Shown one piece after another: positions 4,421 through 57,438 of a stretch of DNA of 64,000 bases. Every line of letters starts with the position of its first letter. Position 1 is the stretch's first letter. This stretch comes from Raillietiella orientalis (Eukaryota). The notes below the pieces were generated by a model, which was not told the origin of the DNA, did not search any database, and was given only the letters and a program-made list of their open reading frames with translations. The DNA lies in NCBI GenBank assembly GCA_036172245.1, contig JAYWIR010000049.1:62001-126000 (forward strand), given 5' to 3'. Made by a program: the position numbers and the translations under genes.

Positions 4421-4434
4421 TACTGCTGGGAAGA

Positions 4435-11004: not shown

Positions 11005-11018
11005 GGGATTTGGCGATG

Positions 11019-23600: not shown

Positions 23601-24097
23601 TCCAACTTCGGGAGTCCTAGAGTAAAGACGGGCGTATTGGTATGCCCGGTCGTTCTTCAGCCCTTCACCTAAACCTAGAGATAGACGGTTCTGGGGAAAC
23701 TGGTTGCAGAACTCGCGGACTGAGCTCTTTAAGTCGTCCCAGTCCGCGAGCGACTGCAGATGGAAGCCTAGCAGGAATGAGCGAAGATGTTGCGCTTCTC
23801 CTGCGAGGCGCAACCAGTCCCCTGACAAACGCCACGCTGTGGAGGGTGGACCTCTACCACGCGAGTGTATTTGAAGCACGAGCCGGGAATGGTCGGAAAG
23901 TACGGATGGCACTGCCCCACGATTTCCCACCCGCGAACACAGGTGGTTGTCGAGGAACATGTGGTTGATCCTCGTCTCCGTCCCGGCGTCACCGGCCAAC
24001 AAGTTGCGCGCGTGCATGGCAGCGCACATCTCGTTGACCAGCTGTGCGCGAATGTCGGGCGCACCTGCCACCAGGCGAACGTTAATGTCCCCGGCAA
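20700..24097 (-). mobile_element. Lineage-I element, ORF2 from mid-EN to 3' terminus (stop 20948)
   Basis: AGDINV, SDH, NWRPIT, DLRKAFD, QGDSLSP, YADE, CVKCGERETFMHLTLEC; hairpin terminus at 20700-20726. Confidence 0.85.
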
Positions 24098-24110
24098 AGA
24101 AAGGACTTTA

Positions 24111-24151
24111 ACAGTTCCCTGTGCAACGTCTGTCCCGGGGAATCGGCGTTA
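24111..24151 (+). pseudogene. About 40-nt remnant of the host ORF2 into which B4 inserted
   Basis: Reads QFPVQRLSRGIG and is nearly the reverse complement of 8265-8305. Confidence 0.7.
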
Positions 24152-27100
24152 TCACCCGGCTACGCCCGGGCGTTTATTCATAAACTCGACATGCGTGGTA
24201 CAAAGCCCCACCACGGCCGTAAACACAGGACCTGTCGAAACTGCGGGACGCAGCCCGGCGTGGCACTCCCCGACAGCAAAGGGGGATGGGGATAAGACAA
24301 AAAGAAAAGATAAAAAGAAACAAGCAAAAAGAAGCTGGAGGGCAGGGAAGGGATCACTGGTCGCTGTGAGGAAGGGCCATCCGTCGAACGAAGCACTCGA
24401 GCTCTGTCTGCATATTCCCCAGTTGGGGCCATCCGGCAGCTCTTCGCAAGAAGCTTTGGGCATACGGGATGACATCCCTCGCCTGTGGAGCCACTCCTTC
24501 GTTGTTGGCGTCGCTGCATGCCGCCACGATGCCACGGACGCAGCACAAGGCTGCGATGGCTGCGGCTGGCTGCAGTGCGTCCTTCACGAAGAGGGGCCGA
24601 GGAAAGTCTCTGGGGGTGCTGTCTGTAGGGAGCCCGAGGGTCGTCCCGAACCATTCCCAAAGTGGTCGGAGGGCTGCACAATCCACAATAAGGTGAGGGA
24701 GAGACTCCCGCTCCCCGCACCTGGCACACGCATGATCCAAAGCTCCGCTCGTCCAGTGAAAGCGGCGCGCGTTGCAGGGTAGACCCTAGTGCAACAGGAG
24801 CAACGCCGACTCATGCCACTTGAAGGGCAGGATCCTGGATTCCTTCATCACCGAGGGCCACTTCAGCTCATCCCTGGGGATGACGAGCAGCTCGCCCCAT
24901 CTTAATAATCCTCGCGGCTGGAAGCTCGGGGTCGTGGCGTCGGCCAGTTCTCCTGTTGTCCAGCCGTTAATCAACTTCTTGCGTCCCTCGATGCAGCAGG
25001 GGACTTGATACCTTGGCGTCCGGCTGCTGTGAAGTGCCATCCTCAGGAAGGGCAGCGCCGAAGATAGGCAGGTCGTCTCTGCCCTCGTGCATATTGCTGG
25101 ACTCTCCAGGAGAATCCGCAGCGTGCAGCGGGCGTAAAGGCTGCATCGGAGACGATTCCACGTTCCGTGGCTCCTCTGGTTAACCGCTGCCCACGTTCCG
25201 ATATTCTACTACAGTCAGGCGGGGGAGTTGGCGGGGCAGCAAACCATCCAGCTGTTCTCCTTGGCCAATGTTTCCATGCGCCCGAGCAGTAGGCCGAATC
25301 GTCACATCTTCCGGCAACGGCTCAGAAGAAAAGATGCGAGTATATCGCACCCGGACACACGGCTGGCCAGGAGGCGGGCCGGAGTGCACCAAGGGGTGCT
25401 CCACATCTTCGCTGCGATGGCAAGCGTTCGCCACCGCAGCAGCTTCTTCACGCGCTCCAGCGTCAGGAGGCCAAGACAGCCGTCCCGACGCGGAGCGCAC
25501 AAGTCCTTCAGAGGGACTCGGGGCCTCCCCTTGTCCCAAAGGGCGATACGGAGGAGGTCCTTCGTCCTCTTCTTGGATTCCAAGGTGGGGGGGCAAACGA
25601 AAAGCAAGGGGCGGAGGATGGGGGCCGCAAAGGCGTTCCAAACCGCGGCCCGTTCCGGCAAGTGGAACTTGCCTTCCAGGAACGGGCCTATCGCCGTCTC
25701 GACTTTTTGAAGGCAGCAGGACCACGCTTCCGCAGGGAAGTAGTCCCCCAACGGCACACCAAGGTACTTAAAGCACTTCGCCGAGGGGATCCCCAGACGG
25801 AACCAGTCCTGCTGTCCTTCCCACGCCGCACCTATTGGCACAACCGACGACTTCGCGCTGTTAACCTGCAGTCCGGTCCCGCGGCTGAGCAGATCGCAGA
25901 AGTGTCCGACCGCCTTTGCCAGGGTGGACATTGGCAACAAGAGCAGAAGATCGTCGGCGTACGCTGCTACGGCGGGCGTGCCGGGGCACGAGCTCGGCAA
26001 TGGGGCCAAAGTCATCCTGTACGCTCTCAGCACCAGCTCAAAGTAGGTGCTGAAGAGCAGGAGGTTGAGGCTATCTCCCTACCTTATGCCCCGCCGCACC
26101 GGCACGCCATACACTCTGTAACCACTGAAAGAGACGGTAATCATCGCATTCCGCCAGCAAGAGCGCAAGTAGGAAATCAGGGAGGGTGGGAAGCCCATGC
26201 GACCCAGAAGCTCCAAGAGGAGTTCCTGGTTTTCACAGTCGAACGCTTTGTGGAGATAAACTGCGAGCGTTAGGGCCTGTTCCCCCGCCCGGGGCTCCCT
26301 TCCCAGTCCGGCTGGCGGCCCCAATGTGGGGTTGCCGACCTTCCCTATCCCTTTCTTCTCTCTTCTCTGCAGGTGCACCCATGTGCTTGCGAAGAAGAGT
26401 TTGGCATCCATACTTCGCCCGGGAACAGCATAAGTCTGCTTCGGAGTAATTACGGATTCTGCCACCTGCCCCAGACGGGAAGCCCATACCCTGCTATCAA
26501 CTTGGCGTCCGTATTTACGATCGTGATCGGAAGCCAGTTTTTTAAATTCCTGAGGTCTCTTCCTTTCGGAAGGAGCCTCACTCTGGCTGACCGAAACGAG
26601 GCGGGAACATCGCCTTCGTCTCGGATCAGCCTGATCAACTTGAGCAGCAGGGGTGCCAGCTCTTCCGCAAAGCTCTGAAAGCACTATGCGGGCAAGCCGT
26701 CTTCCCCTGGAGCTTTACGCCTCTTGATTCCTTTGATACCGGCGAGATTTTCGCCAGTGGTAAAAGGCTCGTCGAGGTTTTCCATCTCCTCCTCCCCTAT
26801 TGCCAGGGCGCCATCCGGAATCAAGCGCCGAGAGTCGTTTCGATTGGGGGCTCCCTGGCGTAAAGCGAGGAATAAAAACTCCGCACTAGATGCCGTACCG
26901 ACGCCGGGGACGAACATTCCCGGCCCTGGTCGTCCAGCCAGCTGGCCGACCCAGATTGCCAGGCTTGGCGTTCGGCCTCGGCGCGGTACTCGTCCAGGCG
27001 ACGGACATTAGGAGTTCTCTCTAACCTACGAGCCTGTAAGTAGGCCGGATGGTTGCGAGGACCCTCGACGAATCCGGGGGGAAGGCGGTCCAGGGGGAAC

Positions 27101-27490
27101 TGCTCGCAGAACTCTCGGACAGATGCCTTGAGTAGGTCCAATACAGAGAGATTCTCGAGTGTGACGCCTCTCAGGAATTCGCGAAGGTATTCCTTCGCCC
27201 CTAAGAGTCGCATCCAGTCCCCCGGCAGACGCCAATCCCTAAATGGCGGTCCCTTGTTACGAGACCGCATCTCGCAAATTAACCGGGAATGGTCCGACAA
27301 CGTCGACGCAACCCTCCCCCGTTTGCCGACCCGTGAACACAGGTCAGCGTTGAGGAAGACGTAGTGGATGCTGCTGACCATTCCACTCTCACCCGCGAAC
27401 AAGTTGCGCGCACGCATGGCAGTGCACAACTCGTTCATCGCGTTCTTTTGTGTTTCAGGCTCACCTGTTACCAGAAGGAGATTGAAATTT
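24152..27490 (-). mobile_element. Lineage-B element B4, 3' part (EN C-half, RT, 3' terminus)
   Basis: FNL..GEPETQ.NAMNELC continues the EN left at 38905; LHKAFD, YADD; terminus at 24152-24178. Confidence 0.88.
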
Positions 27491-27491
27491 A

Positions 27492-29641
27492 TCTCCCGGT
27501 CACGCCGGGGCGTTTATTAATAAAAATAAACTGGTCAGGGACAATGTCTTTAACCAACAGTACGACAGGGAACATAGAAAAATTACCGCCACGCAGGCCT
27601 GGTAAACAAATCGCTCGCAGCGTGGGAGGAATGAGGGGAAACAAACAAAAATCAAAAACTGGAGTAAAGGGTAACAGGTTTTAGGATAGGCTTTGTACTC
27701 ACGGGGATTTATACGATGAGCACCTGAAATCTTCAGGAGCCTATGGGGACGCGGGTGTAAAAAGAAAATACAAAATTAGTTTATGGAGGGTAGGGCAATG
27801 ATCACCGTGTTGGCCGCTGCTCAGCGTGTGTAAACCGGAGGTGTATTGCGGCGAGATTCCTTTTTGTCTCCTTGTCAAATGAGACCATCTAGCGGATGCT
27901 CCCATGTAGAAGGATGCTTTTCTGATTACCTCTTGGTGCTATCCGTTGATTACCAACGACTGGCAGACGGAAACTATCGCGCGTATGCAACCGATGGTTG
28001 CAATCCTTGCGCAAAGAGACAGCCCGCTCGGCGTGAAGAATCGTCGCAGAAGTCTCTTGCGGTGTCCACGGGATGCATTAGTGCAGTAGCCAGCCTACGC
28101 CACAGTTTTTGTAGGACACCGCAGTCCAGAACCGAACGCAGTTCGCAGACGCAAGTCCCCCGGAGTCACGATGCCAACGCTCGTTTCACTGAAAACCCCA
28201 GCAAACGAAAAGCAACACGGCTTGTTTTCAAGCAAGGGGGAGCAGCGAACTGTCAATACACTGTGGAGGGACTACAAGTTCTTCGGGGGTGACAGCAAGT
28301 TCTTCTGCCCACCGGACGAGTCCCTTTGCAGTAACAAGATAAGTGGCGGCGTCCGCCAACTCACTCGTGTTCTAGGCGCCAAGGAGTTTGGTTTTTCCCA
28401 CTATCGTGCAAGGAAACTTCCACTTCGCCGGTTGGTAATTGTCCTTTCTTGCCCTGAGTGCAGACAGCGCTGCGGCAAGAGGCGTGGCAGCCAGGGTAGA
28501 AAACTTCACCTCGTCCTGCAATACTTCTTCCAAGGATCGTAAAAAAAATTGGCGCAAGGGGCGAAGATCTTCAGGTCGTATTCCTTGGAACGTCGCCCAG
28601 GATTCAACAGACTCCTGCCGCCAAGCTTCAAAGTTCATTGGGCGGCAGGACATCCACGAGTGAGCTTCCAGAAGTGCGGTCAACTACCGCAATGGAATCC
28701 CGAAACCCTGCTTCCTGTATTGAGTACACGGCAAAAGCGAGAGAAATCCTCCGCTGCCGGCGCATCTCCGCAGGAGAATGCGGCCTGGCACACACAGGGG
28801 GGATGTCCATAGCTGGACACACAGCGCCAGCAGTCGGAACTGCACCTGCAGTCCGATTCGCTCCATTGTCAGGATACCCATACCAGCATCCCGACGCGGA
28901 GCTAACAAATCTTTGAGGCGGATTCTGGATCTCGCCGGACCCCGGAAAACGTTCCTGTGCAGGCGATTAGCCAGCTGTCTTGCCGCATAGGGGGGGTCCA
29001 TAACAAAATACAGGGGATGGAGGAGGGGGGCCACAAAGGTGTTGCAAATAGTCTCCCGTTCCTGAGGATTAAACTTGCCGTTAATTAACGGAGTGATGGC
29101 CAACTTTGCTTTCTGAAGACAGTTTGCCCAAGCATTGGCTCCGTCAACAGCGCCCAACGGAACGCCAAGGTACTAAAAGTACCCGCCCGTGGGGATCCCC
29201 AGGCGGATCCAGTCGGACTGCCCCTCCCACGACGCACCCACAAGAGCAAACACGCTCTTCTCTCTGTTCAGGCTCACGCCCGCCCCCCGACGAATCAGGT
29301 CGAAGAAATCCTCGAAACTGGACGCCGGGATGGACATGGGGAGCAGAAGAAGCAGGTCATCAGCTTAGGCGGCAATGGCAGGCGTACCAGGGGAGTAGCA
29401 TGGCAAGTGAGACAGAATCAGCCTGCACGCTCTCAGCTCCAACTTAAAGAAGATGCTATAGAGCAACGGGCTTAAGCTCTCGCCCTGTCGGATGCCCTAC
29501 GCACGGGAATACCGTACACGCGGCAGCCGCTGAAAGTGATGCAGGTTAGCGAGTGGCGCCAGCACTCGCGCAAATACAGCAGGAGATGCGCCGGGAACCC
29601 TAGGCGTTCCATAAGCTCCAAAAGCAGCTTCTGGTTTACGC
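27492..29641 (-). mobile_element. Lineage-G element, 3' part (RT C-half to terminus)
   Basis: DCVNQKLLLELMERLGFP.., RIRLKDLLAPRRD; stop ~27802; terminus at 27492-27518. Confidence 0.82.
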
Positions 29642-29675
29642 AGTCGACCGCCTTGCGTGCTACAGGTTGGACGTG
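29640..29675 (+). promoter_or_regulatory. Putative internal Pol II promoter: Inr-like GCAGTC plus DPE-like GGACGTG at +28
   Basis: A at 29642 lies 27 nt before GGACG at 29669. GGACGTG (once GGATGTG) is found at all 9 clear 5' ends. Confidence 0.5.
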
Positions 29676-29751
29676 TTTTCTCGGTGCTCCTCGTGCCAGG
29701 AAGCCTCCCCCAGTGCAAGCGTCGTGCGGTTCGGTGGTCGATCAGGCAGCG

Positions 29752-31407
29752 ATGCCTGACGCGACCACCAGGGATGGCCAGGGGGTAACGCTGCCCTCAG
29801 AGGCGATGGAGAGCCAGGGGGCGGTGGCAACGTCGCCCACTGAGGCTTTGGAGGTGGGGGCATCCGCCCTCACAGAATCGGTGCCCGCTGCAGCGCGGGC
29901 GTGGAGCGCCGTTGTGTCGGCGCCATCGCCTGCAGCGGCGGCGGAATTGTCGGCCTCTGTAGAGGAGGGTTGTACCCCTCCTCTACAGAGGAGGGATGTA
30001 CAATTTATTATCTTTAGAGAGCGCGCGCGCCTTCTCGAAGGGCATGCGCGCTCTCGAAGAGAAAGAGGAGGAGCTCAGCGCTATGACCATCCCCAGCGGG
30101 GGTGAGTACGTTGAGGTCATCTGCAAACATGCAGAGCTGGCCCAACGACTGCTTAGAACCCCCGTTGTGATGAGGACGCGCAGGCTCCTCCCCACTACGG
30201 CGGACCGCAGCATGGTGGTCCACCTGTTAGGTGTTAAAGCGCGAATGCGCAAGGAACAGGTTCGCGCCGCGTTGGAGGAATACGGAACGGTCCACGCGCA
30301 GTGGACGAAAGTTGTTCCTTTCGAGGACTACACGGGGCTGCAACACGGCGTCACTGCTGCGCGCGTCACCGTTCGGGAGTGCTGCACTCTTCCCCACAAA
30401 CTGGTGGTAGAAGGCGAAACCGTCGACCTTTGGTATGTGGGGAAGCCGAAACACTGTGGCTTCTGCAATAAGTCGGACCAACTCAAAAAGAAATGTCCCA
30501 ATGTGCAGTGCCATGTATGCGGCACAATGGGTCACACGAGGGAGGTGTGCCCAAAAGAAGCAGTGCGGGTGGTTTCCAAGAGAAACCTTAAAAAACGCGC
30601 CCTGCTTTTGCTGAAAAGGCTGGCGGCGAAAGCTGCCGCGAAGGCTGTGTCACCCGCGCCCAAGACCCAGGCCGCAATCGAGACCCGGCGGCCAACGCCG
30701 GAAAAGTTGAGGAAGTCGGTCAGGAGACTGGGTGGCAAGTGGCAACGTCCAAAAAATCAAAGAAGCAGAGGAGGATGGAAAAGAAAATCGCCTTCCAACA
30801 GAAGAAGAAAGAGCAGGGTAGCGCGATAATTAAAGAGTTCAGCGTCGTTGTCAAACGCGTTCTCGATGTTGCCGAACGCTGCCGGGAAGAACTCCTTGCT
30901 ACCGATGACCTCCTTTCTGTTGACACTGTCAACAGCGAGGGGTGCGAGGCGGCGGCGGTGTCCGTCATCGACACCACCATCGATGACGTAGCCTTCGTGC
31001 GAGCCTCAGAGGAGCTGGTAGCTTCGGTGCAGCCAGAACTCTGCATGGCTGGCAAGAAGGCCATAAGGAGTCCGGCCTCCCCTCAGGAGTCCCACACTTC
31101 CGACCCCGAGGTGGCGGCCGGAAACGCCGACTCCGTTTCCACGGCACCGCGCAAGAAGTCTGGAAGTAAGTCCAGAAAGCCAAGGAAGCTCGTCTCCACC
31201 GTCGAAGGGGGAGAGATGGTTTCCGGAAGCGAGGGTGCCATGAGCGTGGGAAATTCTCGGGACCCGTCGCCCGAGAGACTCCCACGCACGGACAAGGAGG
31301 GGATGGAGGGGGTGGAGGCCAAACAGGTGCCTCAGGTGCCTGAGAAGGCCAAAACCTCCATCGACATCCCACCCGCCTCGCAAGAGGCGGGCTCTCCCAC
31401 ACCTTAA
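29752..31407 (+). pseudogene. A3 ORF1 (frameshifted)
   Basis: ORFs 29536-30105, 29996-30829 and 30739-31407 join; contains zinc knuckles. Confidence 0.85.
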
Positions 31408-31421
31408 TCCTCCCAGCAGTA

Positions 31422-34400
31422 ATGCCGGGAATCTCCTCCCGCCGTCGTCTGCGCATCGTCGTTTGGAACGTGAACGGCATGACAGACGCCGGCAGGACAC
31501 GAGACATGGCCGTTCTTCTCGAGTCCTACGACCTTGCGCTGCTGCAGGAGATCCACATGATCTCTGCAGAGCAAGTGCAACAGATCAAAGAGATCTCCGG
31601 TGGACGGCTATGGTACAGGTGTGGGAGAGCGGAAAGTTGCAGTGTCGCCTACCTGCTTCGGCCAGCCGTCGAGGCCGCGGCCCGGGGCGCACGGTTCGAC
31701 GATCACGGTGGTGTCGGCCAGCTGACTCTCAGGTGGTCCGACTCGATCGTTCTGATCGTCACGAAGGTGTACGCACCGAGCAGCAAGGACCTGATAAACA
31801 GGAGGGCGAGGAAAGAGTTTTTTCTTGCCCTCCGGCGAGACTGGCTGACCGAAGCAGGCGTGCGGAATGCCCATCTGGTTGCAGGCGATTACCAAGTTCG
31901 CCTGAAACCATATGGGCAGAATACCGAGCGTGACCTGGTCAACGAGGTGTGCATGGCGGTGCACACCTGGAATTTGTTGGTCAGTGCACCGGGGATGGAA
32001 GGCAGCATTGACCACGTGTTTCTTGACGAGAACCTGTGTCCTCGCGTGGGTAGGCGCGGCAAGTTACCGTGCGAGCTGTCCGACCATCGCCCGCTAGTCC
32101 TCGAGATCCATCCGCGCGACAAAGGCCCCCCCTCTTCAGCGTGGCGTCACCCAGGGGACTGGCTGAACTCCCGAACGCGGCGGAACATCTCCGCACGTTC
32201 ATGCGCAGCTTCAGGCTGGATTGGGACCGCTTCAAGCAGTCGGTCCAGGAGTTCTGCGACCAGTTCCCTCTGCACCGCCTACCTACGGGTTTTGGGATCC
32301 GGGTCCGTAACGAACGAGCCTACCTGCAGGCTTGTCGTTACGCCAGGACCCCCGACATCCGCAGGCAGGCGGAATACAAAGCGGGAGCCGAGAGGCAAGC
32401 CTGGCAGTCCGGATCGGCCAGCTTACTAGACGATCAGGGCCAGTAGCACTCGGCACCTACCCAAATCCACGGCCTGCTGCGGAGTTACTACTCCTCCCTG
32501 TATGCCAGTGCACTTCCGGAGAGGAACGTCTCACGACTCCTGCTTCCGGAAGGCGCTCCAGCGATCGAGGAGGAGCAGAGAAAGACCCTCGACGAGCCTT
32601 TCACGATGGACGAGATCCTCTCGGCCATCGGAAAGCTCAAGAGGCGAAAGGCTCCAGGGGAGGACGGCCTGCCCGCGGAGTTTTATCAAACTTTCGCAGC
32701 TGAGCTTTCTACCCTGGTACAGCAACTCACCTTGCTGATACGGGAAACAGGTGACGTGCTCGCCTCGTTTCGTTCGGCAAAGGTGTGGCTCCTCCCTAAG
32801 GGAGGAAATCTGAGGAGCATGAACAACTGGCGTCCCATCACAATAGTGAATGCGGACGGCATATTGATAGCCAAGATGTAGGCAGAGCGACTGGGACGGG
32901 TTGCCAACATCTTCATCAGCACGGAACAGACATATGCTGTTCCCGGGCGAAGCATGGAAGCGAACCTCTTCCACGCTTCCTCCTGGCTAGAGCTCCAACA
33001 TGAAAGAAGCTTGGTGCGCAGCCGGAATTGCGGGACGTGCGCCGGCAAGGAGTTGGATAGTCGGGTGGGGGAGGGAGCCCTTGTGGTCGATATCGAATTG
33101 CGAAAAGCATTCGATTGTGTCGAACAGAATCTCCTTCTGGAGCTTCTGGAACGCTTGGACTTCCCGGCCTCATTAGTGGTATATCTGAGCTCCTGAAGGC
33201 GCGACGCGCTCATCATTACTTTCAGCGAGCAGACCGTGCACGGCGTGCCGGTGCGGCGTGGGATCCGGCAGGGAGACAGCCTGAGCCCCTTGCTCTTCAG
33301 TACCTACTTTGAGTTGGTATTGTAACCGTACGGGGGATCTCTGGCGCACCTGCGGCACGACTGTGGCGGTACGCCGACCGTTTCAGCATACGCGGACGAC
33401 CTTCTGCTGCTGCTCCCTATGTCCACCCAGGCTGCGGCGGTCGAGGAGTTCTTCGACCTGCTGCATCGGGGAACCGAACTTAAGGTGAACAGGGCAAAAT
33501 CGTCCGTGATGCCAGTTGTTGCGGCCTGGGCAGAGCAGCAGGACTGGGTCCGTTTGGGGATCCCCACGGTGAGGTACTTCAAGTACCTTGGTGTGCCGTT
33601 GGGAGACTACTCCCCTGCGTTAGCGTGGTCCGGCCGCCTTCAAAAAGTAGAGACGGCCATCTGCCCGTTCCGAGGCGGCAGGGTTTTCCTCCCTGAAAGG
33701 GCCGCGGTTTGGAACACGTTCGCGGCTCTTCTCCTCCGCCACCTGCTTTTCGTTTGCCCCCCACAGAGAGGATTAAAAAGCGGACAAAGGATCTCCTCCG
33801 TATTGCCGTTTGGGGCAACGAGAGGGCCCGAGTCCGCTTAAAGGACTTGTGTGCTTCTCGTCGGGATGGTGGTCTGGGCCTCCTGACGCTGGAGCGGCTG
33901 GGGCTTCAGCTCCAGTTCCGCTTGTCGGCACACGTTGTAGAGTTGTGGTGCACCTGTTGGTGCGTCTCTGCACGTCTCCTTCTCCAGCAAGCCACCGGCA
34001 AGACGGGACTGACGTCGTTTCTTACACTCCGTCGCCGCGTCAACCGATGCGGACTCCAGCTACGGAGGGTGGCTGCGCTGTATCGCATAAACACAGAATT
34101 GCTAACTTGTCGCCCTTTGAACGGTAGTCCCTGGTTGCAGGAAACCGTTCGAACGTGGAAACAATACGGTATGCAACGCTCCCAACAGGAAAGAAGGTTC
34201 CTGTTTGGGGGTTACAGAAGTTGCACGCTTCGCAAGATCCTGGAGGATCCACAGAAGAGAGCGTTGGCAGGAAGAATCCACCTGGCTGCTGCGCTGCTCT
34301 CCCTGATAAAAGATCTGTACAGCGATGTTGCGGTGAAGTGGGTGGTTACAGTAACAATCTCCAGAAAGGAGAATAAGATAGGAGAGTGAAAGACGGGCCA

Positions 34401-34986
34401 GTTAACATACGCTGCGACCCCGAGTACGCCTCTCAATGGAATTTTGCGCTATGGCGCGCTGCTCGATGTTCCCATTGAACATCTGAAGTGGCCCACGGGG
34501 CTCATGAACACTTTCGCCCTTCCCTTCAAATGGCAGGAGTCCGTTCTTCTGTTGCAACACTGGGGACTCCCCTGCAACGCCCGCCGACACCACTGGACCT
34601 GGGGAGCGGTGGACCCCTATTGCGTCAGGTTTGGGGAACGGGATTCCCTTCCCCACCTGCTAGTGGATTGTGTTGCCCTTTGGCCCCTTTGGTTTCGCTT
34701 TGCCGCGGACATCGGAATCCCCTGCGGCTACCCCAGGGACGCACTGAAAGTCCTATTCGTTGCCAACGCCCTTCGGCCAGCGTCCTCGTTAGCAGCTTTG
34801 TGCTGCCTACGCGGGATCGTCACCGCTTGGAGCAAGGCTACGGGAGGACAACGCGACAAGGGTGCCATCCAGCCAGCCTCCCAGTTTCTGAGGCGGGCGT
34901 CCCGATGGCCCCACCTGGATCCAGGAATAAAGAAGGAGCTCACCTGCATCCTGCAACGGATGCAACGGCCCAACCAGCTGCTGTGA
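31422..34986 (+). pseudogene. A3 ORF2, APE-RT-CCHC (stops and frameshifts)
   Basis: MPGISSRRRLRIVVWNVNG, LQEIH, VYAP, SDH, KAPGEDGLP, WRPIT, RKAFD, QGDSLSP, YADD, KYLG. Confidence 0.9.
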
Positions 34987-35200
34987 TCCCTTCCCTTACC
35001 CTCCCAACTTTTCTTTTCTTTTTTGGTTTGTTTTTTGTTTTTCCCTTTTCCCCCTGCTGCCGTGGTGGACCGTTCACGTCTGCGAACCGGTGACCCGGCA
35101 GGCTCTGTGTTTCTTCGTGCGTGGCTGGAGCAATGGTCCAGCCACCGCACGTCTTTGTAAAAGTTATTTTGCAATAAACGTCCCAGCGAAATCCGGGTGA

Positions 35201-38200
35201 AAATCGAACGCCTTGTGGAGATCGACCGCGACCGCTAATGCACCTGGCGTTCCCTCCTGCCGTCGGCGCCTGTTCTTCTCGCCTGCGGCAGTGACTTTCT
35301 CAGCAGCCTGACTTTGCTGCGCCACAACTTCCTGCAGCAGCTTTCATGAACGCGCGAAAAGGATGTTCGCCTCCATGAATCGTCCCGGAACCGCGTAGGT
35401 TTGTTCCGGACTCACCACAGATTCCGCGAAACATCCTAGCCGCGCGACCCACAGCTTGGAAAAGAACTTGACGTCCGAGTTCACCAAGGTAATCGGACGC
35501 CAGTTGTTAAGCTGACGCAAGTCTCCGCCTTTCGGCAGGAGACGCACCTTCGCTGAGCGGAAGAAATCCGGGACATTCCCGGATTCACTCATCAGCGTCG
35601 CGAGTCTCAGCATCAAGGGAATAAGCTCCACGTCAAAGCGCTGATAAAACTCTCCAGGGAGTCCATCCTCGCCTGGCGCCTTTCGTCTCTTCAGCCCAGC
35701 GATGGCGGACGAAAATTCATCCGCCGTGAAGGGCCCGTTGAGACGTTCGCCATCCTCCTCGCCGACAACACGAGCATCCTGAGACAGGAGTATCTCAGAG
35801 AGAATATCCTCCGTCGGGGATTCCGCGTTCAGCGAGGAGTAGTAGCGTCTCACAATGCGGCGTACTTCGGCTGGGGCCGAACATTCCTGGCCCTTGCCGT
35901 CCAACAGGCATGCTGCTCCGGACTGCTAGACCTGGCCCTTGGCCCTCGCCTTGTACTCCGCTAGACGCCCGACATCCACGCGTCTCGAAAACGTGCGGAC
36001 CTGCACAGAGTCTCTACTGTCGGCCACGACCTCTCCGAAACCGCGTGGAAGCCGGTGCAAGGGGAATTGGCGGCAGAACTCGCGGACAGATCTTTTGAGA
36101 TCGTCCCAGTCCACAAGTTCTTGAATGGCAAAGCCTCGGAGGTGTCCACGTAGATGCTCCGCAGCCTCCGGTTGGCTCAGCCAATCCGCCTGCATCCTCC
36201 AGTTTTGCAACGGAGGCCCCCTGCCTGGCGGAAGGATCTCAAACACCAACCTGTTGTGGTCAGAAAGCCTAGTCAAAAATCTTCCTCTCCTACCCACACG
36301 CGAATGCAGGTTTTCATCGAGAAGAACGTGGTCGAGCGATATTTACTTCCCAGGTTCGTTGGCCATCAAGTTGGCGGCGTGCACGGACGCCCACATCTCG
36401 ATGGGCAGCGCGCGCTCCCTCGGGCGGCTCCAATCGTCGGAGAGCAGGCGGACGTTGAAGTCCCCAGCGACGAGAGGCGCCACTTGGAAGCCGGAGTTGT
36501 TGAGCCAGTGGCTCTGCCCCTCACCGAAGGAAGGTACTCTTTCTTCGAGGTAGCGAGAGCCACTCGGCGCGTAGACGTTCGTAACGACGAGATCGATGGA
36601 CTCGGACCACTTGATGACAAGCTGGCCTATCCGTCCGTCGTCGTCGAAACGAACACTACGCACTGCTTTCGCCATTTTTCCTCTTACGAGAAACGCGACG
36701 CCGCACGTGTTTGCTCCGCCGCACCGCCAATGTAGCATTCCGCCTGCGCTCTAGTCGATTTCGGAAATTACGTGAATCTCCTGCAGGAGCACGAGGTCGA
36801 AGGGTCGCAAGGCGTTGGCTACTTATCGCCTCTTCTCGTCGTTCTGTAGTCCGTTCACGTTCCAACACGTTACGGACAGACGACGAAAAGACGCGATTCC
36901 CCGCACTACTGTTGGGAAGGTGGCGGCTTTTCGCTCCCTTTATCCGGCGAGCAGACGGCGAGCAGCACGACTGGCTGGAGAAGACGGTCGCCACCTTCCT
37001 CCGTCGTGCTGCATGCATGTAATACCTCCACGCCAGGCTTAACCCCGTCGGGTTTCGTGTACACTTCGCGTTGCTTCGCGGCGAGCGTTGCCTGGCTGCT
37101 TACTTTCGATCGGCGCGCACACGCTTTTGAACGAGTTGTCCTCGTCTCGTTGATCGGAAGGGCATCCATTTCGGAGTCCGACCGGCGCATGTTCGATCGG
37201 GTTTCGGTCTTCCGCGAAGTAGTGACAGGTTCTGCTGGATTAACAGCTGTCCTGCTTTCGTTTTCCGTCACCAGAGCATCGCTTTTGGTGACGGCTGCTT
37301 TCCCGGCGCGCGCGTTCTCAGCGTGCTCACGCGCAGTTGCACGAGGGACCTTTGCTGAAGTCTTCTTTACTTCATTACGGTTCCTCACTTCGCGTGGCGC
37401 CGTAAATGGAGATTGTGCTCCATTGCCATCTTTGAAGCCATCTGCGTCTTTGGACGGGAGCACTTTCGATGGCTCCGACACAATCGTCATGGACGCTGCC
37501 TTCGGAAGGGCTTTTAATCCCTTCGTTGGCATGGCATCCGCGCCAGTCTAGAGCTTGCTCTCCGACTGCGACGGCGTGAGATTTTTCTCCGCTTTCGCGG
37601 TGTTGGATTCCGACGCGGATTCTTTTTGCCGACTTTCGAAGTCGACATGGCACAAACCTTCTTAGCCGATTTCAGCTTCTCAGCCACTGCAGGAGGTGAA
37701 GGAATGGATCTGACGGTACTGGAAGTGTCCTTACCGCCGTTGTCCATTGGCGTCGCCGCCGGTTGCTCGAACTCCGAGAGAGCTGGGCGTGCTTGGGAAG
37801 GACAGCTATTGCGCCTAGGGGGACTTACCATTGCCCCGGATTCCCCGCACTCTTTCTTTTGCGGCTTCCCTGCCGCGAGCAGGGGCGCGCAGGGCTTCGC
37901 GTGCGAGGTTTCCTGCTGCTTTGGGGCGACATTCCGCCTCGCGTTTTTACGGAATTTCTGCCGTGATGTCTCCAGGTTTTTCGCAGATTTTTTCTTTTTA
38001 TCCGCGCTTTGTTTTTTAAGATGGAGCTCCGCGGCTGCCTTTTTCCGCAAAAGATCCGGGCAATTTTTCAATTGGTGCCCAGATAGTTTGCAATAACGGC
38101 ATTTTCCAGAGGGGCATTTATCCAAACAATGCCCCTCCTTCCCGCCTTGCTCGCACGTTCTTTTTTGCCCACGTACCACAGGTGAACGACCGTGTCTTTC

Positions 38201-38902
38201 ACCTGTAGTTTGGTGGGCAGCAGACGGCGGTCCGGCATTGTAAGCCGGACTCCAGGGACTCCGCTGTGTATGGACGGGAAGTCCTTGAGGTTGCTACGCA
38301 CCCTCCACAGCGCATGGACCGTGGCGAATTTCGCCAACGCGTTTCGAATATCAATATCCGAGATTTCCGACTCGATGTCGAAGATCTCCGCCACAAATGA
38401 GTCGTTCATGGCGGCCGGAAAGACCTACTGGCCACGGATCGACAACGGGGTGCTCAGCAAGCGTTGCACAAGTGCAGCGTCTTTGCAACGCACCTTGAAA
38501 TAGCCCATAGCCTTATCGGGCATAATGGCGAGGATGTCCTCCTCCCGCACGCGAACACGGGTCAGTTCATCGTTGAACTGATTCCCGTCGCGCGCAGAAA
38601 GAAAACCACTCACCTTATATCGGAGAGCAGGTCTATAGCCTTGGGCTACGTATGCTCGCAACTCCGACTCGTCGAGTGGTTTCCCTTTGACAGCTGCTGT
38701 GGCAGCAACGTCAGGAAAACTCGTCTCCATTTGCGAGAAAGACGAAGTGGAGGCGGCCGTCGGTTCCGCGATTGCAGATCCAGATGCTGTTCCTCTAACT
38801 ACAGTAGCTTACTGTTGGGTCAACATCGTCGTCAAAATGTACGACACCAAGATAAAGCGGATGAAAGCACGGAGACGAGAGCGAAGAAAAACACGTCCGC
38901 AC
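35201..38902 (-). mobile_element. Lineage-G element, 5' part (ORF1 ~38826-36906, EN, RT N-part)
   Basis: GTGCGGACGTG at 38892-38902; CRYCKLSGHQLKNC; NVYAP, GDFN, SDH, NWRPIT, ending at AVDLHKAFD. Confidence 0.85.
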
Positions 38903-41224
38903 TCGATTGAAATCTCCCGTTATCAGCTGAGCGTTCCGCACGTTCGTGTCTGCCAGCCAGTCACGCTTTAGGGATTCCGGCAAGCTGGTGCGGTCGCTGT
39001 ATCTCTGTTTACCGCTGGGTGTGTACACATTCGTGACGATCAGTTCGAGCGAGTCGGATTAGCTGAGAATTAGCTGACCGACCCGAACGTCGTCATCGAA
39101 GCGCACGCCCTTCACGGCAGCGTCAATGGCCGGCTTCACGAAGAACGCGACCCCGCAGATGTTTCGGAGGCCGCACCGCCAATACAACCGGCCTCCCGCG
39201 ATCGTCTCGATCTCCTGGGCGTCTGCCGCGGTGATTACGTGGATCTCCTGCAGCAGGGCCAGGTCGAGCTCACGCAGGGTGTCGGCCGTATCTCGCCTGT
39301 TACTGTCGTCGCGCAGCCCGTTGACGTTCCAACAGGCGGCGCGAATCCGACGGCGACTGGCGAGCCCAGGTGTTACCTCTAGCAAGATGGCTATGCGGCG
39401 TCCGCCACCTGTTGGGGCGGGATGCTAGGTGGAAGAGAAGGGCCAGGCGCTGCATGCACCTGGTTCATCTCCTTCATGGGTAACGGTGCTTCGAGCGGGT
39501 CACCCTCAGGTGGGGTGGCGCCCACCTGTTGGCCCTCCTCCATGTGGGTGGGCTGTTCAGGCTCGGCGACTGCATGCAGGACTTCGCTCCCCCGCTCACC
39601 CTCCTCCATGGGAGTGGCCGGCTCGACGGCTTCGAGCGTGTGAGTTCCCCCTCCGGAATTCCCACGCTAACGCTACCTTCCTGCTTCTTTTCCTCGTTGG
39701 TGGAGGGGAGGCACCTCTTGGGTTTCTGGGACTTGCGTCCCGACATTCCTGGGGGGTGCCTCCAAGGAGGAGAATGCGCTTCCGGCCCCCAGGTCCAACT
39801 TACCTGTGGGGGCCTTTTTCGCGGGAGCCGGACTTCGCACGGCCTTGCGCGAGGGGTTCTCACGCGCGGCCAGCGTGGCCGCGAGCTCCTCCGCCGCCTG
39901 AGCGAACGCGGCGTCCTCGGCTTCGACCGCCGCTATTTCGCGCGGCTCACTTTTTGTGTAAACAGAGGGTTCGCCGTTGCGAACCTCGGGCGCGGCGGAA
40001 ACGGCGAGGGAAGGCTCGTCTCCCGTGTGGCAGTCTCGGGAACGGCTATGCGCTCCAGTTCCACCGTACAATCCCGCATGGACTTGGAGCGCGGCCCAGG
40101 ATTTTTCGCCTTGCCTGCTGCCTTTTTTTCCGCTTTCGCGGGTTCCGCGGGGGAACCTCTTTCTCCTTCCTGGCTTTGACCAGCTGCCAGCCGTCTTTTA
40201 CTTCCGCGTCTTCGGAAGGTTTTTTTTCCTACGCCTGTGTGGGAGGTACAGGGACTATCGGCTGCTGCCGGCTAGTATCTCTTTTTGGTCTTTCGACCAA
40301 TGTTCCGCGTTTTGCATGTGCTTTCTTTGCAGCAGGCGGCATCGAAGTGGTGCGTTTAGGGCATACGCGGCGCACGTGGCCCTTCTCCACGCAAACGTGG
40401 CACACAATGTTCGGGCACCGCTTGCGCAAGTGTCCTACTGCATTGCAGTAGCCAAAGAAGCGGGATTTCCCCACGTACCATAGGTCTACGATTTCGTCAT
40501 TGACCTCTAGTTTGTGGGGAAGCCCACTCTGTTTCACCGTCACGCGCGCGGCGGCCTGCCCTCCGAAAAGGCTATCGTAGCCCTCGAAGATTGTGGCCTT
40601 TGGCCATAGCGCGTGAACATCGCCATATTTTCTTAACTAATCACCAACCGCAGACCGCGTCATGCGGCTGGTGATCCCTGTCAGATGGACCACTACGGAG
40701 CGGTCCATCGTGACTGGTAGGATCTTGCGTCCGTCCACGTTCAGCGGGGTGGTTATCAAGCTTTGCGCCAAGGTGATGTCCTTGCAGACAACCTCGATGC
40801 GCTGTCCCCCGCTCAGCACGAACAGGCCGTCAAGATCTTGTTCTTTTACTCCGGCATTTTGCAGCGCCCTCAAAAAAGCGCGTGTAGTTCGCCCGTCAAA
40901 GAGATTGCCTACCTGGTACACCAGGCTGGGTTTGTACCCAGCTGCACGGTAGGCTGCCATCTCGGCCATGGTTTCCGCGTTCGGCGCGGCCACCATGGCG
41001 CTCCATCTCCTCGCCTTGGGTTGCGAGGGAGATTTCGGGGCGGGCGCTTCTCATTCTGTAAGCTGTGGGGGTGGGTAAGCCTCTCTCACAACTACCTTCA
41101 TCGCGGTGTCCTCAGGCATCGCTGACATCGGACACCAACGATGTTCCACACGAACACACACAAATAAAAAACCGCTCCATGTCGACTCACTCGGGAGCAA
41201 AGGAAAAACACGTCCACTCGCCAA
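38903..41224 (-). mobile_element. Lineage-B element B4, 5' part (ORF1 plus EN up to GDFN)
   Basis: Close homolog of 50135-52455; GGACGTG at 41209-41215. Confidence 0.88.
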
Positions 41225-41238
41225 GGGAGTCGGCGTAG

Positions 41239-43596
41239 TCACCCGGGTACGCCCGAGGCGTTTATTAATAAACTCTACATGCGTGGTACAAAGCCCCTTC
41301 ACGGCCGTAAACACAGGACCTGTCGGGACAGCGGGACGCAGCCCGGCGTGGCACTCCCCGACAGCGAAGGGGGATGGGGATAAGACAAAAAGAAAAAATA
41401 AAAAGAAACAAACAAAAAGAATTTGTAGGGCAGGGAAGGGATCACTGGTCGCTGTGAGGAGGGGCCATCCGTCGAACGAAGCCCTCGAGGTCAGTCTGCA
41501 TATTCCCCAGTTGGAACCATCTGGCAGCTCTTCGCAAGAAGCTTTGGGCGTACAACATGACATCCCTCGCCTGTCGACCCACTCCTTCGTTGTTGGCGTC
41601 GCTGCATGCCGCCACGATGCCACGGACCCAGCACAAGGCTGCGATGGCTGCGGCTGGCTGCAGTGCGTCCTTCACGAAGAGGGGCCGAAAAACGTCGCTG
41701 GGGGTGCTGCCCGTAGGGAGCCCAAGGGTCGTCCCGAACCGTTCCCAAAAGGGTCCCAGGGCAGCACAATCCACAATAAGGTGGGGAAGCGACTACCGCT
41801 CCCCGCACCTGCCACACGCAGGATACACAGCTCCCCTCGTCCAGTGGAAGCGGCGCGCGTTGCAGGGTAGACCCCAGTGCAACAAAAGCAACGCCGACTC
41901 TTGCCACTTGAGGGGAAGGATCCTGGATTCCTTCATCACCGGGGGCCACTTTAGCTCATCCCTGGGTATGGCGAACAGCTCGCCCCATCTTAATAATCCT
42001 CGCTGCTGGACGCTCGGGGTCGTGGCGTAGGCCAGTTCTCCTGTTGTCCAGCCGCTGATCAACTTCTCGCGTCCCTCGATGCAGCAGGAGACTTGCCACC
42101 TTGGCGTCCGGGTGCTGTGAAGTGCCCTCCTTACGAAGGGCAGCGCCGTAGCTGGGCAGGTCGTCTCTGCACACGTGCATCTTGCTGGACTCTCCAGGAG
42201 ATACCGCAGCGTGCAGCGGGCGTAGGGGCTGCATCGGGACGATTCCACTTCTCTTGGATTCTCTGGTTAACCACTGCCCACGTTCCAATATTCTCCTCCA
42301 GCCAGGCGGGGGAGTTGGCGGGGCAGCAAACCATCCAGCTGTTCTCCTTGGCCAATGTTGCCATGCGCTTGAGGAGTAAGCCGCATCCTCGCATCTTTCG
42401 GCAACGGCTCAGAAGAAAGGACGCGAGTCCATCGCACCGGGGCACACGGCTGGCCAGGAGGCGGGCCCTCGTGCACCAAGGGGTGCTCCACATCTTCGCT
42501 GCGATGGCAAGGGTTCGCCACCGCAGCTGCTTTTTCACGCGCTCCAGCGTCAGGAGGCCAAGACCGCCGTCCCGACGCGGAGCGCACAAGTCCTTCAGTG
42601 GGACTCGGGGCTTCCCCTTGCCACAAAGGTTGATACGGAGGAGGTCCTTCGTCCTCTTCTTGGATTCCAAGGTGGGGGTGCGAACAAAAACAAAGGGCGG
42701 TGGATGGGGGCCGAGAAGGTGTTCCAAACCGCGGCCCGTTCCGGCAAGTGAAACTTGCCTTCCAGGAACGGGCCGATCGCTGCCTCGACTTTTTGGAGCC
42801 AGCTGGACCACGCTTCCGCAGGGGAGTAGTCCCCAAACGGCACACCAAGGTTCTTGAAGCACCTCGCCGAGGGGATCCTTAGACGGAACCAGTCCTGCTG
42901 TCCTGCCCAAGCCACACCTATTGGCACAACCGACGACTTCTCCCTGTTAACCTGCAGTCCGGTCCCGCGGCTGAGCAGAACGAAGAAGTCTCCGACCGCC
43001 TTAGCCGGGGAGGACATTGGCAACAAGAGCAGAAGATCATCAGCGTACGCTGCAACGGCGGACGTGCCGGGGCAGAAGCTCGGCAATGGGGCGAGGGTCA
43101 CCCTGTACGCTCTCAGCACCAACTCAAAGTAGGTGCTGAAGAGCAGGGAGCTGAGGCTATCGCCCTGCCTTATGCCCCGCCGCCCCGGCATGCCATGCAC
43201 CTTGTGACCGCTGAATGAGACGGTAATTATCGCATTCCGCCAGCAAGAGCGCAGGTAGGAAATCAGGAAGGGTAAAATGCCCATGCGACCCAGGAGCTCC
43301 AAGAGTAGTTACTGGTCTACACAGTCTAACGCTTTGTGGAGATCGACTGCGAGCGCTATAGCCGCCTTATCCGCCCGAGATTTCCTTCCCAGCCCGGCTG
43401 GCGGCCCCAATGTGGGGTTGCCGACCTTCCCTATCCCTTTCTTCTCTCTTCTCTGCAGGTGCACCTATGTGCATGCGAAGAAGTGGTTGGCATCCATACT
43501 TCGCCCGGGAACAGCATAAGTCTGCTCCGGGCTAATTATGGAATTGGACACCTGCCCCAAACGCGACGCATACAGCCCGGCAATCAACTTGGCGTC
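41239..43596 (-). mobile_element. Lineage-B element B5, 3' part, head-to-tail with B4, cut at DAKL
   Basis: QGDSLS, YADD; terminus at 41239-41266; begins at GAC GCC AAG TTG. Confidence 0.85.
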
Positions 43597-46710: not shown

Positions 46711-47372
46711 AAATCGAACGCCTTGTGGAGATCGACCGCTACCGCTAAGGCAACCGGCGCTTCTTCAGGCCAAATGCAACGACGCCTAGCTCTGGCAGCC
46801 GCAAATGCGGTTGCCTGGCATTCGTGCTCCACGCAACGTTGCAGCTCGAGCCACGTGCGCGCGAATAACAGATTCGCCTCCATAGAACGCTCGGGAAAAG
46901 CGCAAGACTGCTCCGGACTTACCACGGATCCAGCGATCCTGCCAAGGCGCGGGAGCCACATCCTAAAGAACAACTTGACGTCCTCATTCACCAAGGCGAT
47001 GGGGCGCCAGTTGCTTAAATGGCGCATGTCTCCGCCTTTCGGCAAGAGACGCACCTTTGCTGGGCGAAACGAGGCCGGCACATTGCTCGTCTCTCGCATC
47101 AGCGCAGAAAGCCTAAGCACCAGGGGGATGAGTTCCGAGGCGAAGCACTGGATGAATTCCGCAGGCAGACCATCCTCACCTGGCACCTTGCGCTTCTTTA
47201 GGCCCGCTATGGCAGAAGACACTAGTTCCGACGTGAAGAGCAAGTCAAGAGTGGCGCGTTCCTCTTCGTCGTCAGCAGGGGAATTTGCCGGCAGAAGCAG
47301 CTTCGAGAGACAGCGTTCCGTCGGCTCCCTTGCATACAACGAGGAGTAGTAGCGCCTTAGCAGGCGGCGAAC
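46711..47372 (-). pseudogene. Lineage-E ORF2 fragment (E2), between the VRR and KAFD sites
   Basis: ORF 46674-47441 is homologous to 59510-60172. Confidence 0.85.
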
Positions 47373-47387
47373 GGCGGACGTTGAGTA

Positions 47388-49291: not shown

Positions 49292-50134
49292 AAATCGAAT
49301 GCCTTATGGAGGTCGACTGCGATTGCTAAGGCCCCCTTTCCCGCATGAGGGTCCCTACCCTGTGCCACTGGCGGCCCCAAAGTAGGGTTGCAAATTTTCC
49401 CTTTCCCTTCTTTCTTACTCCGCTGCGCGTGTATCCATGTGCTCGCGAAGAAGAGGTTGTCCTCCATGCTTCGCCCGGGAACAGCGTAAATCTGCTCCGG
49501 GCTAATTATGGAATTGGACACCTGCCCCAATCGCGACGCATACAGCCCGGCAATCAACTTGGCGTCCGTGTTTACAATCGTGATCGGACATCAATTGCAA
49601 AATTTCCTGAGGTCTCCTCTCCTCGGGAGGAGCCTCACTCTGGCTGACCGAAACGAGGCGGGAACATCGCCTTCGTCTCGGATTCACCTTGTCAACTCGA
49701 GCACCAGGGGGGCCAGCTCTTCCGCGAAACTCTGAAAGAACTCCACGGGCAAGCCGTCCTCCCCTGGCGCCTTACGCCTCTTGAGCCTTTTGATACCGGC
49801 GAGAATTTCGCCGGTAGTGGAAGGCTCATCGAGGCTTTCTCTCTCCTCCTCCCCTATCGCCACGGAACCACTCATGAGCAATCGCCGCGAAGCGTCTTGT
49901 TCGGGTGGTGTTTTGGCGTAAAGGGAGAAATGAAAACACCGCACGAGATTCCGTACCGCAGACGGGGACGAACGTTCCCGGCCCAGGTCATCCAGCATGC
50001 TGGCTGACCCGGATTGTCAGGCTTGTCGCTCGGCTCCGGCGCGGTATTCTGCCAGGCGACGGACACTGGAGTTCCTCTCGTGACGACGCGCGTGCAAATA
50101 CGCGCGTTGGTTGCGAGCCTCTTCGCCGAATCCC
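49292..50134 (-). pseudogene. B-like ORF2 fragment (B6), between the GFG and KAFD sites
   Basis: GFGEEARNQRAYL..KAPGEDGLP..DAKLIA..AVDLHKAFD. Confidence 0.85.
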
Positions 50135-55134: not shown

Positions 55135-55224
55135 GTGCGGACGTGTTTTTGTAGCGCTCCTCCGCGCCTGGTGTAAAGCGTTTGGTTTCTTTTGTGTTTG
55201 TCTGTGGAGCATCTGCGGTGTCCA

Positions 55225-57246: not shown

Positions 57247-57438
57247 CACCTGGGCTCGCCTGTCGCCGTCGATTACGCGTGACCTGCTGGAACGTGAACG
57301 GGCTGCGCGACGACGGCAACAGACGGGACACGGCCGCCACCCTGCGTGACTTCGACCTGGCACTCCTGCAGGAGATCCACGTGATCACCGCGGAGAACGC
57401 CCAGGAGATCGAAAGGATCGCAGGGGGACGGTTGATTG

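Follow-up and report, generated by a model that had tools for sequence, protein, structure and literature searches.

Three dead long interspersed nuclear elements (LINEs) form a genuine stack in Raillietiella orientalis: an element that we designate B4 is split by a second one, G, and G is split in turn by a third, A3. All results described here pertain to a single window of 64 kb (contig JAYWIR010000049.1 of assembly GCA_036172245.1, positions 62,001 to 126,000 of the forward strand), whose own coordinates are used throughout and in which the letters A to H, J and T are local labels for families. We find it likely that this stack, standing in a block of LINEs only, was built by target-primed reverse transcription at family-specific targets in the second open reading frame (ORF2) of sibling LINEs, and that the 5' copy of the repeat flanking A-family elements was borne on their RNA. 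The nest as such is ordinary; what sets it apart is the mutual site-specific targeting that it reveals, so far in one window. The parts of the nest, with their endonuclease (EN) and reverse transcriptase (RT) regions, are the following.

24149 to 27488, minus strand: 3' part of B4, with EN from the break between GDFN and L on, RT, C-terminal region and 3' terminus; 9-nucleotide (nt) repeat copy at 27480-27488; empty KAFD site at 26239-26250
27489 to 29655, minus strand: 3' part of G, with RT from KA(V/F)D on, C-terminal region and 3' terminus; 12-nt repeat copy at 29644-29655
29656 to 35203, plus strand: A3, a full-length A-family LINE of 5,548 nt with ORF1, EN, RT and a weak zf-RVT-like C-terminus; dead
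35204 to 38904, minus strand: 5' part of G, with 5' terminus, ORF1, EN and RT up to HKAFD; 12-nt repeat copy at 35204-35215
38905 to 41224, minus strand: 5' part of B4, with 5' terminus TTGGCGAGTGGACG.., ORF1 and EN up to GDFN; 9-nt repeat copy at 38905-38913; 89.8% identity to B6
52447 to 52455, plus strand: empty counterpart of the G insertion site, in B6, located by overlap alignment and 9-mer count

Both insertions can be compared with uninterrupted counterparts in the same window. G (27489-38904, minus strand) lies in the orientation of B4 and splits its endonuclease codons between GDFN and L. The 9-mer GATTGAAAT stands on either side of it (27480-27488 and 38905-38913) and occurs three times in the 64 kb (0.28 expected), the third occurrence being the empty site in B6, a copy 89.8% identical to B4 (50135-52787) that is uninterrupted at this point. 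When the halves of B4 are aligned to B6, the upstream part aligns to the last base and the downstream part from the first base of ATTTCAATC, giving an exact 9-bp overlap. With G excised and one copy of the 9-mer kept, the B4 frame reads ..GDFNLLLVTGEPETQ.. against ..GDFNLRLLTGEPETQ.. in B6, and an ORF of 270 codons crosses the join. A3 (29656-35203, plus strand) is antisense to G and splits the codons HKAFD of its RT. Its flanks, TCGACCGCCTTG at 29644-29655 and TCGAACGCCTTG at 35204-35215, form a 12-nt repeat with one mismatch, and the halves of G overlap by 12-14 nt when set against two uninterrupted RTs (that of B4 at 26239-26250 and that of a G-like copy at 58469-60451). After excision of A3, G reads ..AVDLHKAFD followed across the join by CVNQKLLLELMERLGFP.., an ORF of 103 codons spans the junction, and a 661-residue RT probe crosses it as one gap-free high-scoring segment pair (residues 1-360, 66.6% identity). 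Given these empty-site overlaps, chance is excluded as the origin of the repeats flanking G and A3.

The initial annotation had proposed this nest, which is confirmed, and its interpretation is supported in part. Removing A3 restores the RT of G and removing G restores the EN of B4 in agreement with intact B6; in-silico excision heals the frame at each junction, the rejoined halves belong together, and the order of insertion was indeed B4, then G, then A3, as each inner element lies inside the outer one. Its three pairs of flanking repeats are present at, or a few bases from, where it had placed them, and the limits shift by 2-14 nt: the G insertion stands with limits corrected from 27492-38902 to 27489-38904, and that of A3 from 29642-35200 to 29656-35203. 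That full-length B and G elements can be rebuilt from the locus is right for extent and gene order, as rejoined B4 (5,651 nt) and rejoined G (5,856 nt) are comparable in length to full-length A1 and A3 (~5.55 kb) and both show the complete, collinear order ORF1, EN, RT and C-terminal region, but it does not extend to coding capacity. Rejoined B4, rejoined G and A3, the last 90% identical to full-length A1 over 5,570 nt, each contain several frameshifts and in-frame stops; probes align in 2-3 frames per element and the stop-delimited pieces measure 90-270 codons.

The limits of the elements do not depend on the flanking repeats, since they are set by termini that are shared across the window. 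We inspected 13 3' ends (10 found by motif and 3 by alignment) and nine 5' ends, and those of the nest members agree with them. In the sense direction the conserved 3' end reads ..AATAAACGCCCCGGCG..CCGGGTGAnAA, without poly(A), and this motif is matched 10 times in the window where 0.32 matches are expected. The nine 5' ends have ..G(T/C)GGACGTGTTTTT.. in common near the first base, and at least nine canonical 5' termini are present (A1, A2, A3, B4, B6, C, G, F and F'). The 3' end common to all families is ~30 nt long and comprises AATAAA, a GC-rich palindromic core and ..GGGTGAnAA, again without poly(A) (for example at 24149-24190, 27489-27530 and 35162-35203). RNAalifold, run on 12 of the 3' ends, predicted a 5-bp stem but found 0 compensatory pairs, a result that speaks neither for nor against a structure.

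The surroundings of the nest are of the same kind. The GC content is 54-64% per 2-kb bin across the 64 kb, and in a self-comparison nearly the whole window aligns elsewhere within itself as LINE sequence (65-91% identity, both orientations), with no long terminal repeats (LTRs); at least seven diverged LINE families, 65-78% alike, share this one island. Three long ORFs of sibling copies carry RVT_1, the non-LTR reverse transcriptase domain (E 2e-17, 4.2e-17 and 2.1e-22). Single ORF fragments of B4, G and A3 give RVT_1 below the Pfam threshold only, and the three elements align collinearly to the RVT_1-positive sibling ORFs at 56-67% identity. Similarly, the ORF1 of the F family contains zf-CCHC (21.7 bits, cut-off 20.8) and can be aligned with the ORF1 regions of A3 and of the rejoined B4 and G; a CCHC-like motif can be read in A3 ORF1. 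Pfam found no endonuclease family on the ORF fragments of the nest members. A phmmer search of the PDB with the region upstream of the RT gave a weak ExoIII/APE match (E 0.0013) and the L1 endonuclease 2v0s (E 0.026), and the motifs GDxN and SDH can be read in the translations at the positions expected for an endonuclease. The C-terminal zf-RVT scores below threshold (E 0.055-0.058). Among the matches listed, the closest named proteins are ORF2 proteins of animals and plants with EN, RT and zf-RVT (~28% identity), and one unnamed metagenome protein reaches 61% identity; there is no green-algal name among the 120 protein matches listed. A scan of viral_contigs with the 661-residue RT returned no relative, and a Protein Atlas search returned generic RT clusters only. 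A metagenome scan with the conserved 3'-end motif yielded five loci, none of them similar to the window by blastn or tblastx, which we regard as chance matches. On the basis of the self-alignment, the RVT_1 and zf-CCHC domains, the weak APE match and the nearest ORF2 proteins, the window reads as a block solely of related LINEs with a putative APE-type EN and an L1-like layout, the clade being judged from the nearest matches.

The initial annotation, right about the nest, had overlooked the repeated use of the same insertion sites, which becomes visible when 19 junction flanks are mapped on a common coordinate, that of rejoined B4. In the A family, all four 3' junctions (A1, A3, A4 and A5) fall at host coordinate 3561 and all three 5' junctions (A1, A2 and A3) at 3550/3551, so that each of the five end-preserving copies occupies, in antisense, the same KAFD codons in a host LINE of its own. 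Similarity is 65-77% among the four hosts for which a 3' flank exists, and 77-91% among the A copies themselves. The 17-mer around KAFD is matched nine times (0.39 expected): four sites are occupied, four are empty (in B4, B5, a G-like copy and H) and one is unrelated. The three best-kept occupied sites carry an identical 23-mer, and the empty sites differ at 1-4 positions. For the B and C families the site is an 11-mer of the class CGCCRANTCCC, with nine matches against 0.54 expected, of which five adjoin B/C-family termini (8268, 11005, 24138, 41225 and 50124), three represent one homologous internal position of B1, B4 and B5, and one lies in G; the 3' end of B1 and the 5' end of B6 stand antisense at host coordinates 2734 and 2725. 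Both F-family 5' ends (F and F') are found antisense at coordinate 3289 of two different hosts, one A-type and one B-type, and share a 7-nt microhomology (TTGGCGT), with no co-mobilised host tract beyond ~10 nt found beside these two ends. Sites seen a single time are those of G (2312/2320, sense), the G-like copy (2045), A6 (2652) and H (~2900), and the D insertion site recurs only in an inverted duplicate described below.

Since the ends of the A, B/C and F families recur at the same sites, what look like target-site duplications are family-specific targets. In this way A, B/C and F are shown to be site-specific, which cannot be said of G, because six of the 13 inspected 3' termini, that of G included, stand at sites seen once. 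The targets, KAFD within the RT and PGF/IG within the EN-RT linker, are coding motifs in the ORF2 of sibling LINEs, not a multicopy cellular gene or a simple repeat. Apparently, then, target-specific LINEs have built this LINE-only, Zepp-like cluster by inserting into the ORF2 of one another. Two of the F copies (1-353 and 55140-57438) have 5' ends reading TTGGCGTGCGGACG.. and contain tandem repeats of 24/48 bp in their 5' regions (1-163 and 55385-55514).

The 5' junctions of the A family differ from a plain duplication. All three 5' repeat copies read TCGACCGCCTTG with GACC, and GACC is found in none of the eight other sequences, as the four 3' copies and the four empty sites read GAAC, GAAT or TAAC. 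This count of three of three versus none of eight argues that the 5' copy was brought by the element, and that part of the A-family "duplication" is thus probably element-borne; the variable base m, which the initial annotation had accommodated in a matching target-site duplication of A3, is systematic, and its reading of the A3 flanks as plain duplications does not hold. A longer tract is found beside the 5' end of A1 (6185-~6400), where the B-type host B1 bears ~215 nt of G-family RT sequence, 92-93% identical to 29440-29655. The first ~200 aligned nt of B1 beside A1 are 92-93% identical to G and 66-69% to B4, and thereafter the sequence is 89-95% identical to B4; a hand count of informative sites gives 48 G-type, 6 B-type and 5 that are neither among the first 59, and after ~6400 all but two are B-type. 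The 3' flank of A1 is B-type from its first bases (89-91% identical to B4), and the foreign sequence in A2 amounts to ~15 nt at most. Given that the G-type tract is one-sided, A1 would have brought ~215 nt of G-family RT sequence on its 5' side only.

How could such junctions arise? For the enzymology, including which strand is nicked first, we infer target-primed reverse transcription, in which a nick at a defined target would prime copying from the conserved 3' end and a second nick 9-12 nt away would yield the flanking repeat. The targets, particular to a family, sit in conserved coding stretches of the ORF2 of its siblings: the A family strikes the RT codons HKAFD and the B/C families the 11-mer in the EN-RT linker (..PGF/IG..), both on the antisense strand, and G struck the EN codons GDFN. 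Reuse of a regenerated 11-mer by the B/C families could have produced the head-to-tail pair B5-B4 described below. The RNA of A-family elements would start in the host upstream of the element, that is in the antisense host RT, ~15-215 nt or more upstream of CGTGCTACAGG.., and would carry a host-derived leader; the 5' junction could then be sealed by pairing of the new cDNA end with the homologous RT of the next host. An RNA-borne host leader would place the same variant in every A-family 5' repeat copy. The outer layers of the stack were probably scrambled later by unequal exchange.

The main rival for the 5'-junction step of the A family is co-conversion at the DNA level. More broadly, the junctions could have spread as DNA, either by segmental duplication of composites or by homing-like gene conversion from an A-in-G locus that dragged its flanks along. 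The ~215-nt G-type tract beside A1 inside a B-type host would fit such a history, as would a 91% inverted duplicate of a composite in the window (16932-20697 vs 64000-60170) and a chimeric A/C element that switches at homologous positions (12338/12339). Additionally, the part of a study of Chlamydomonas available to us describes ZeppL arrays that change by unequal exchange (10.1101/2022.05.23.493040). Yet the foreign tract stands on one side only, as A1 has B-type sequence at its 3' flank, which fits priming from a nick and not a two-sided co-conversion; moreover, the other A copies are flanked by hosts of unrelated families, and A2 has almost nothing foreign to show. We therefore regard a spread at the DNA level as unlikely, and prefer insertion by target-primed reverse transcription with a leader that may be RNA-borne.

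The outer flanks of B4 consist of the following features.

20697 to 24109, minus strand: H, the 3' portion of another LINE family, with RT and EN from just upstream of GDIN to the 3' terminus at 20697; the left outer context, ~66% identical to B4 coordinates ~2300-4455
24110 to 24148, plus strand: T, a C/E-type LINE scrap of 39 nt that reads QFPVQRLSRGIG (EN-RT linker), whose last 11 nt are the left repeat of B4
24138 to 24148, no strand assigned: left 11-mer GGGAATCGGCG, a B-family target and the 3'-side flank of B4
41225 to 41235, no strand assigned: right 11-mer GGGAGTCGGCG, flanking B4 on its 5' side and at once B5 on its 3' side
41236 to 43598, minus strand: B5, another copy of B that covers B coordinates 3289 to the 3' end, shares 90% identity with B4 and lies head-to-tail with it; its inner end adjoins the 5'-truncated A4

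With a 39-nt scrap and H on the left, and B5 followed by A4 on the right, B4 is not the outermost level and its outer flanks are not one host. The two 11-mers do flank B4, as the initial annotation had seen, and immediately adjoin its 3' and 5' termini, both typical of the family, but the 11-mer recurs as the B/C target and is not a private duplication of B4. B5 and B4 lie in tandem, given that the right-hand 11-mer directly adjoins the 3' end of B5, and at 11005 a 5' end, an 11-mer and a 3' end again follow one another in this way. Inside element C, the sequence flanking the 3' end of B1 (8268-8306, reverse complement) matches the scrap T at 36 of 39 positions, and every other site in the window has more than 11 mismatches to T. 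T and H meet abruptly at 24107-24110, just upstream of the GDIN codons of H (whose ORF at 23556-24107 reads ..FFAGDINVRL..) and at a non-target position, with no duplication or microhomology found there. To the right of B5 follows A4, a 5'-truncated A copy, and on that side the window contains neither the rest of T nor a 5' part of H nor a 3' part of J; a search for a duplication framing B5, B4 and T found none. B5 ends at most 10 nt from an F-family site. Two readings of the pair can be offered: either B4 reused the regenerated target beside B5, or B5, B4 and the 39 nt came together as a read-through product. Tandem insertion at a regenerated target is known for target-specific LINEs, according to the portion of a published account available to us (PMC4640811).

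The second of these readings belongs to a wider possibility, that composites moved as units: G already containing A3 would have entered B4, or B5, the 11-mer, B4 and the 39-nt tail would be a read-through transcript (3' transduction) from a C-type host that landed beside H. The near-identity of the 39 nt to the flank of B1 in C and their abrupt stop at H favour it, as does the repeated arrangement at 11005, and an A-in-G composite did exist elsewhere or earlier, since A1 carries G-type sequence. On the other hand, no duplication frames the supposed B5-B4-39-nt unit, and moving G with A3 inside it needs an 11.4-kb transcript through an antisense LINE and an RT acting in trans; the window also offers no further member of the G subfamily, be it with A or without it, for comparison. 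Movement as composites thus seems quite improbable to us.

A third possibility is that elements nested at random in a transposon graveyard, and that the repeats are plain target-site duplications without any sequence preference. Nested transposons with duplications are commonplace, and the 3' termini at once-seen sites, that of G among them, are what one would expect of random nesting. This is hard to reconcile with five A copies at one nucleotide position in one orientation, in hosts that are only 65-77% alike, with five B/C ends at one 11-mer and with two F ends at one site; by our own arithmetic, four further A hits would fall on the first site by chance with a probability of ~1e-16 (~5.6 kb, two strands), and we consider random nesting very improbable. 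Finally, an assembly artefact, in which collapsed or mis-joined repeats mimic a nest, is scarcely credible: the region is wholly repetitive and its junctions are bridged by no independent reads, but mis-joins fall in shared sequence, whereas here every junction falls exactly on a canonical terminus, with a matching short duplication and a frame that excision heals, and the copies involved are only 82-90% alike.

Several observations weigh against the building of this stack by target-specific LINEs. The results come from one 64-kb window, and neither a read nor a second assembly bridges the junctions. One DNA run (0.11 of sampled words) gave short contigs over 23900-41500 that are 95-99% alike (other copies or a relative) and were not shown to bridge a junction; its depth is zero in several bins, including the one that holds 27488/27489, and two reported joints in its contigs link merely B-type RT sequence to a KAFD flank resembling that of G. 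The once-seen sites of six of the 13 inspected 3' termini, G's among them, count here as well, and so do the four good KAFD sites that are empty. The outer level is unclosed, with neither a shared host nor a duplication to frame the B5-B4 pair. The endonuclease match is weak and stays under the Pfam thresholds, and the predicted 5-bp stem of the 3' ends is invariant and without covariation. Moreover, the 5'-truncated A4, A5 and B5 adjoin elements other than the holders of their 3' ends, which means that later rearrangement or unequal exchange must also have acted. For A4 (43585-43598) and A5 (47372-47389), the neighbours at the truncated ends are B5 and G', respectively, and we suspect a deletion or unequal exchange there.

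Other structures in the window deserve mention. An element at 11017-16230 is chimeric, its C-type 3' region (11017-12338) being joined at homologous positions of the RT end to an A-type body (12339-16230); it has an internal deletion near 14365, its 5' end lies at a KAFD site of host D and its 3' end at the B/C 11-mer. The segments 16932-20697 and 60170-64000 are 91% identical inverted duplicates of a composite of the 3' part of D and a G-like element, and in one copy the 3' end of H interrupts this G-like element at 20697, whereas in the other the element continues intact across this point. The chimeric element and the inverted duplicate point to later unequal exchange, as does the behaviour of ZeppL arrays. 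A second, deeper stack occupies 49295-64000 and runs off the window; here E contains B6, B6 contains A6, A6 contains F and F contains a G-like element, each 3' or 5' end being antisense to its host.

How does this block compare with known systems? The closest likeness in cluster layout is with the L1-clade LINEs Zepp and ZeppL, which the parts of two studies available to us describe as nested, GC-rich, LINE-only clusters of green algae (Chlorella, Coccomyxa and Chlamydomonas), formed by a mechanism that targets existing copies and confined, for reasons unexplained there, to one island per chromosome, often the centromere (PMC8226300, PMC3446292). Both are LINE-only islands of nested copies, reshaped by unequal exchange in ZeppL and probably so in our window, and both have a high GC content (61% for Zepp, 54-64% per 2 kb in our window). 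They differ in that the island studied here has at least seven diverged families, many full-length copies, both orientations, no poly(A) and exact hits on codon blocks, whereas ZeppL-1_cRei is a single family of ~8.3 kb. Zepp/ZeppL arrays also consist mostly of 5'-truncated 3' ends, as far as the available part of one of these studies goes (PMC8226300), in contrast to the at least nine canonical 5' termini in mixed orientations found here. Another group for comparison is formed by the LINEs of the Tx1/R1 clades; the named proteins nearest to the elements of our window have an L1/Tx1-like layout of EN, RT and zf-RVT. Mutsu and TRAS/SART are, beside Keno, among the target-specific APE-type LINEs of these clades. 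In the portion available to us, a published account gives such LINEs an APE-type EN, a single precise target for each family and exact 3' junctions, with tandem insertions now and then (PMC4640811). One target per family, exact 3' junctions and tandem insertions are thus common ground; the targets are not, since Tx1/R1 elements use multicopy host genes, microsatellites, telomeric repeats or a DNA transposon, and the elements described here use coding motifs of sibling LINEs.

R2 and the nests of maize offer two further comparisons. R2 has a restriction-like endonuclease, is co-transcribed with 28S ribosomal RNA and is processed by a ribozyme, and the 5' junctions of R2 (and of R1) form through target sequence carried on the element RNA. 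Similarly, the upstream repeat of the A family and the ~215-nt host-type RT tract of A1 arrive with the element and join within homologous sequence; the A family, for its part, lies antisense to its host. The LTR nests of intergenic maize DNA have been used for relative dating, and the logic by which the inner element is the younger, together with in-silico excision that heals the outer one, is the same here. The maize elements are LTR elements without a shared site, whereas ours are LINEs at recurring sites. In a limited library that did not include the original Zepp papers, literature searches on self- and sibling-targeting LINEs turned up nothing on LINE families that take the ORF2 codons of one another as targets. 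What would distinguish our island from the known systems, judging by its sequence, are several diverged families per island, catalytic and linker codons of siblings as targets, strict antisense orientation for three families and a 5' copy that appears to be element-borne.

For the annotation of such clusters, two warnings follow. Matching flanks are shared targets and no proof of a former single empty site, and part of an apparent "duplication" can be element-borne. Beyond this, we see about even chances for a broader picture, that of a guild in which each LINE family recognises a different conserved ORF2 codon block of its siblings, in antisense, with the A family adding an R2-like leader. 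The island would then be self-seeding and self-confining without any chromatin cue, possibly as a centromere of the Zepp type. If the EN targets exist only inside LINEs, confinement to an island follows from sequence specificity alone. Since the sites struck are conserved coding motifs in the ORF2 of siblings, a relative is killed with each hit, and in such a guild every insertion, while doing so, would yet create new targets. If true, this would show plainly that transposon families can prey on the catalytic codons of one another.

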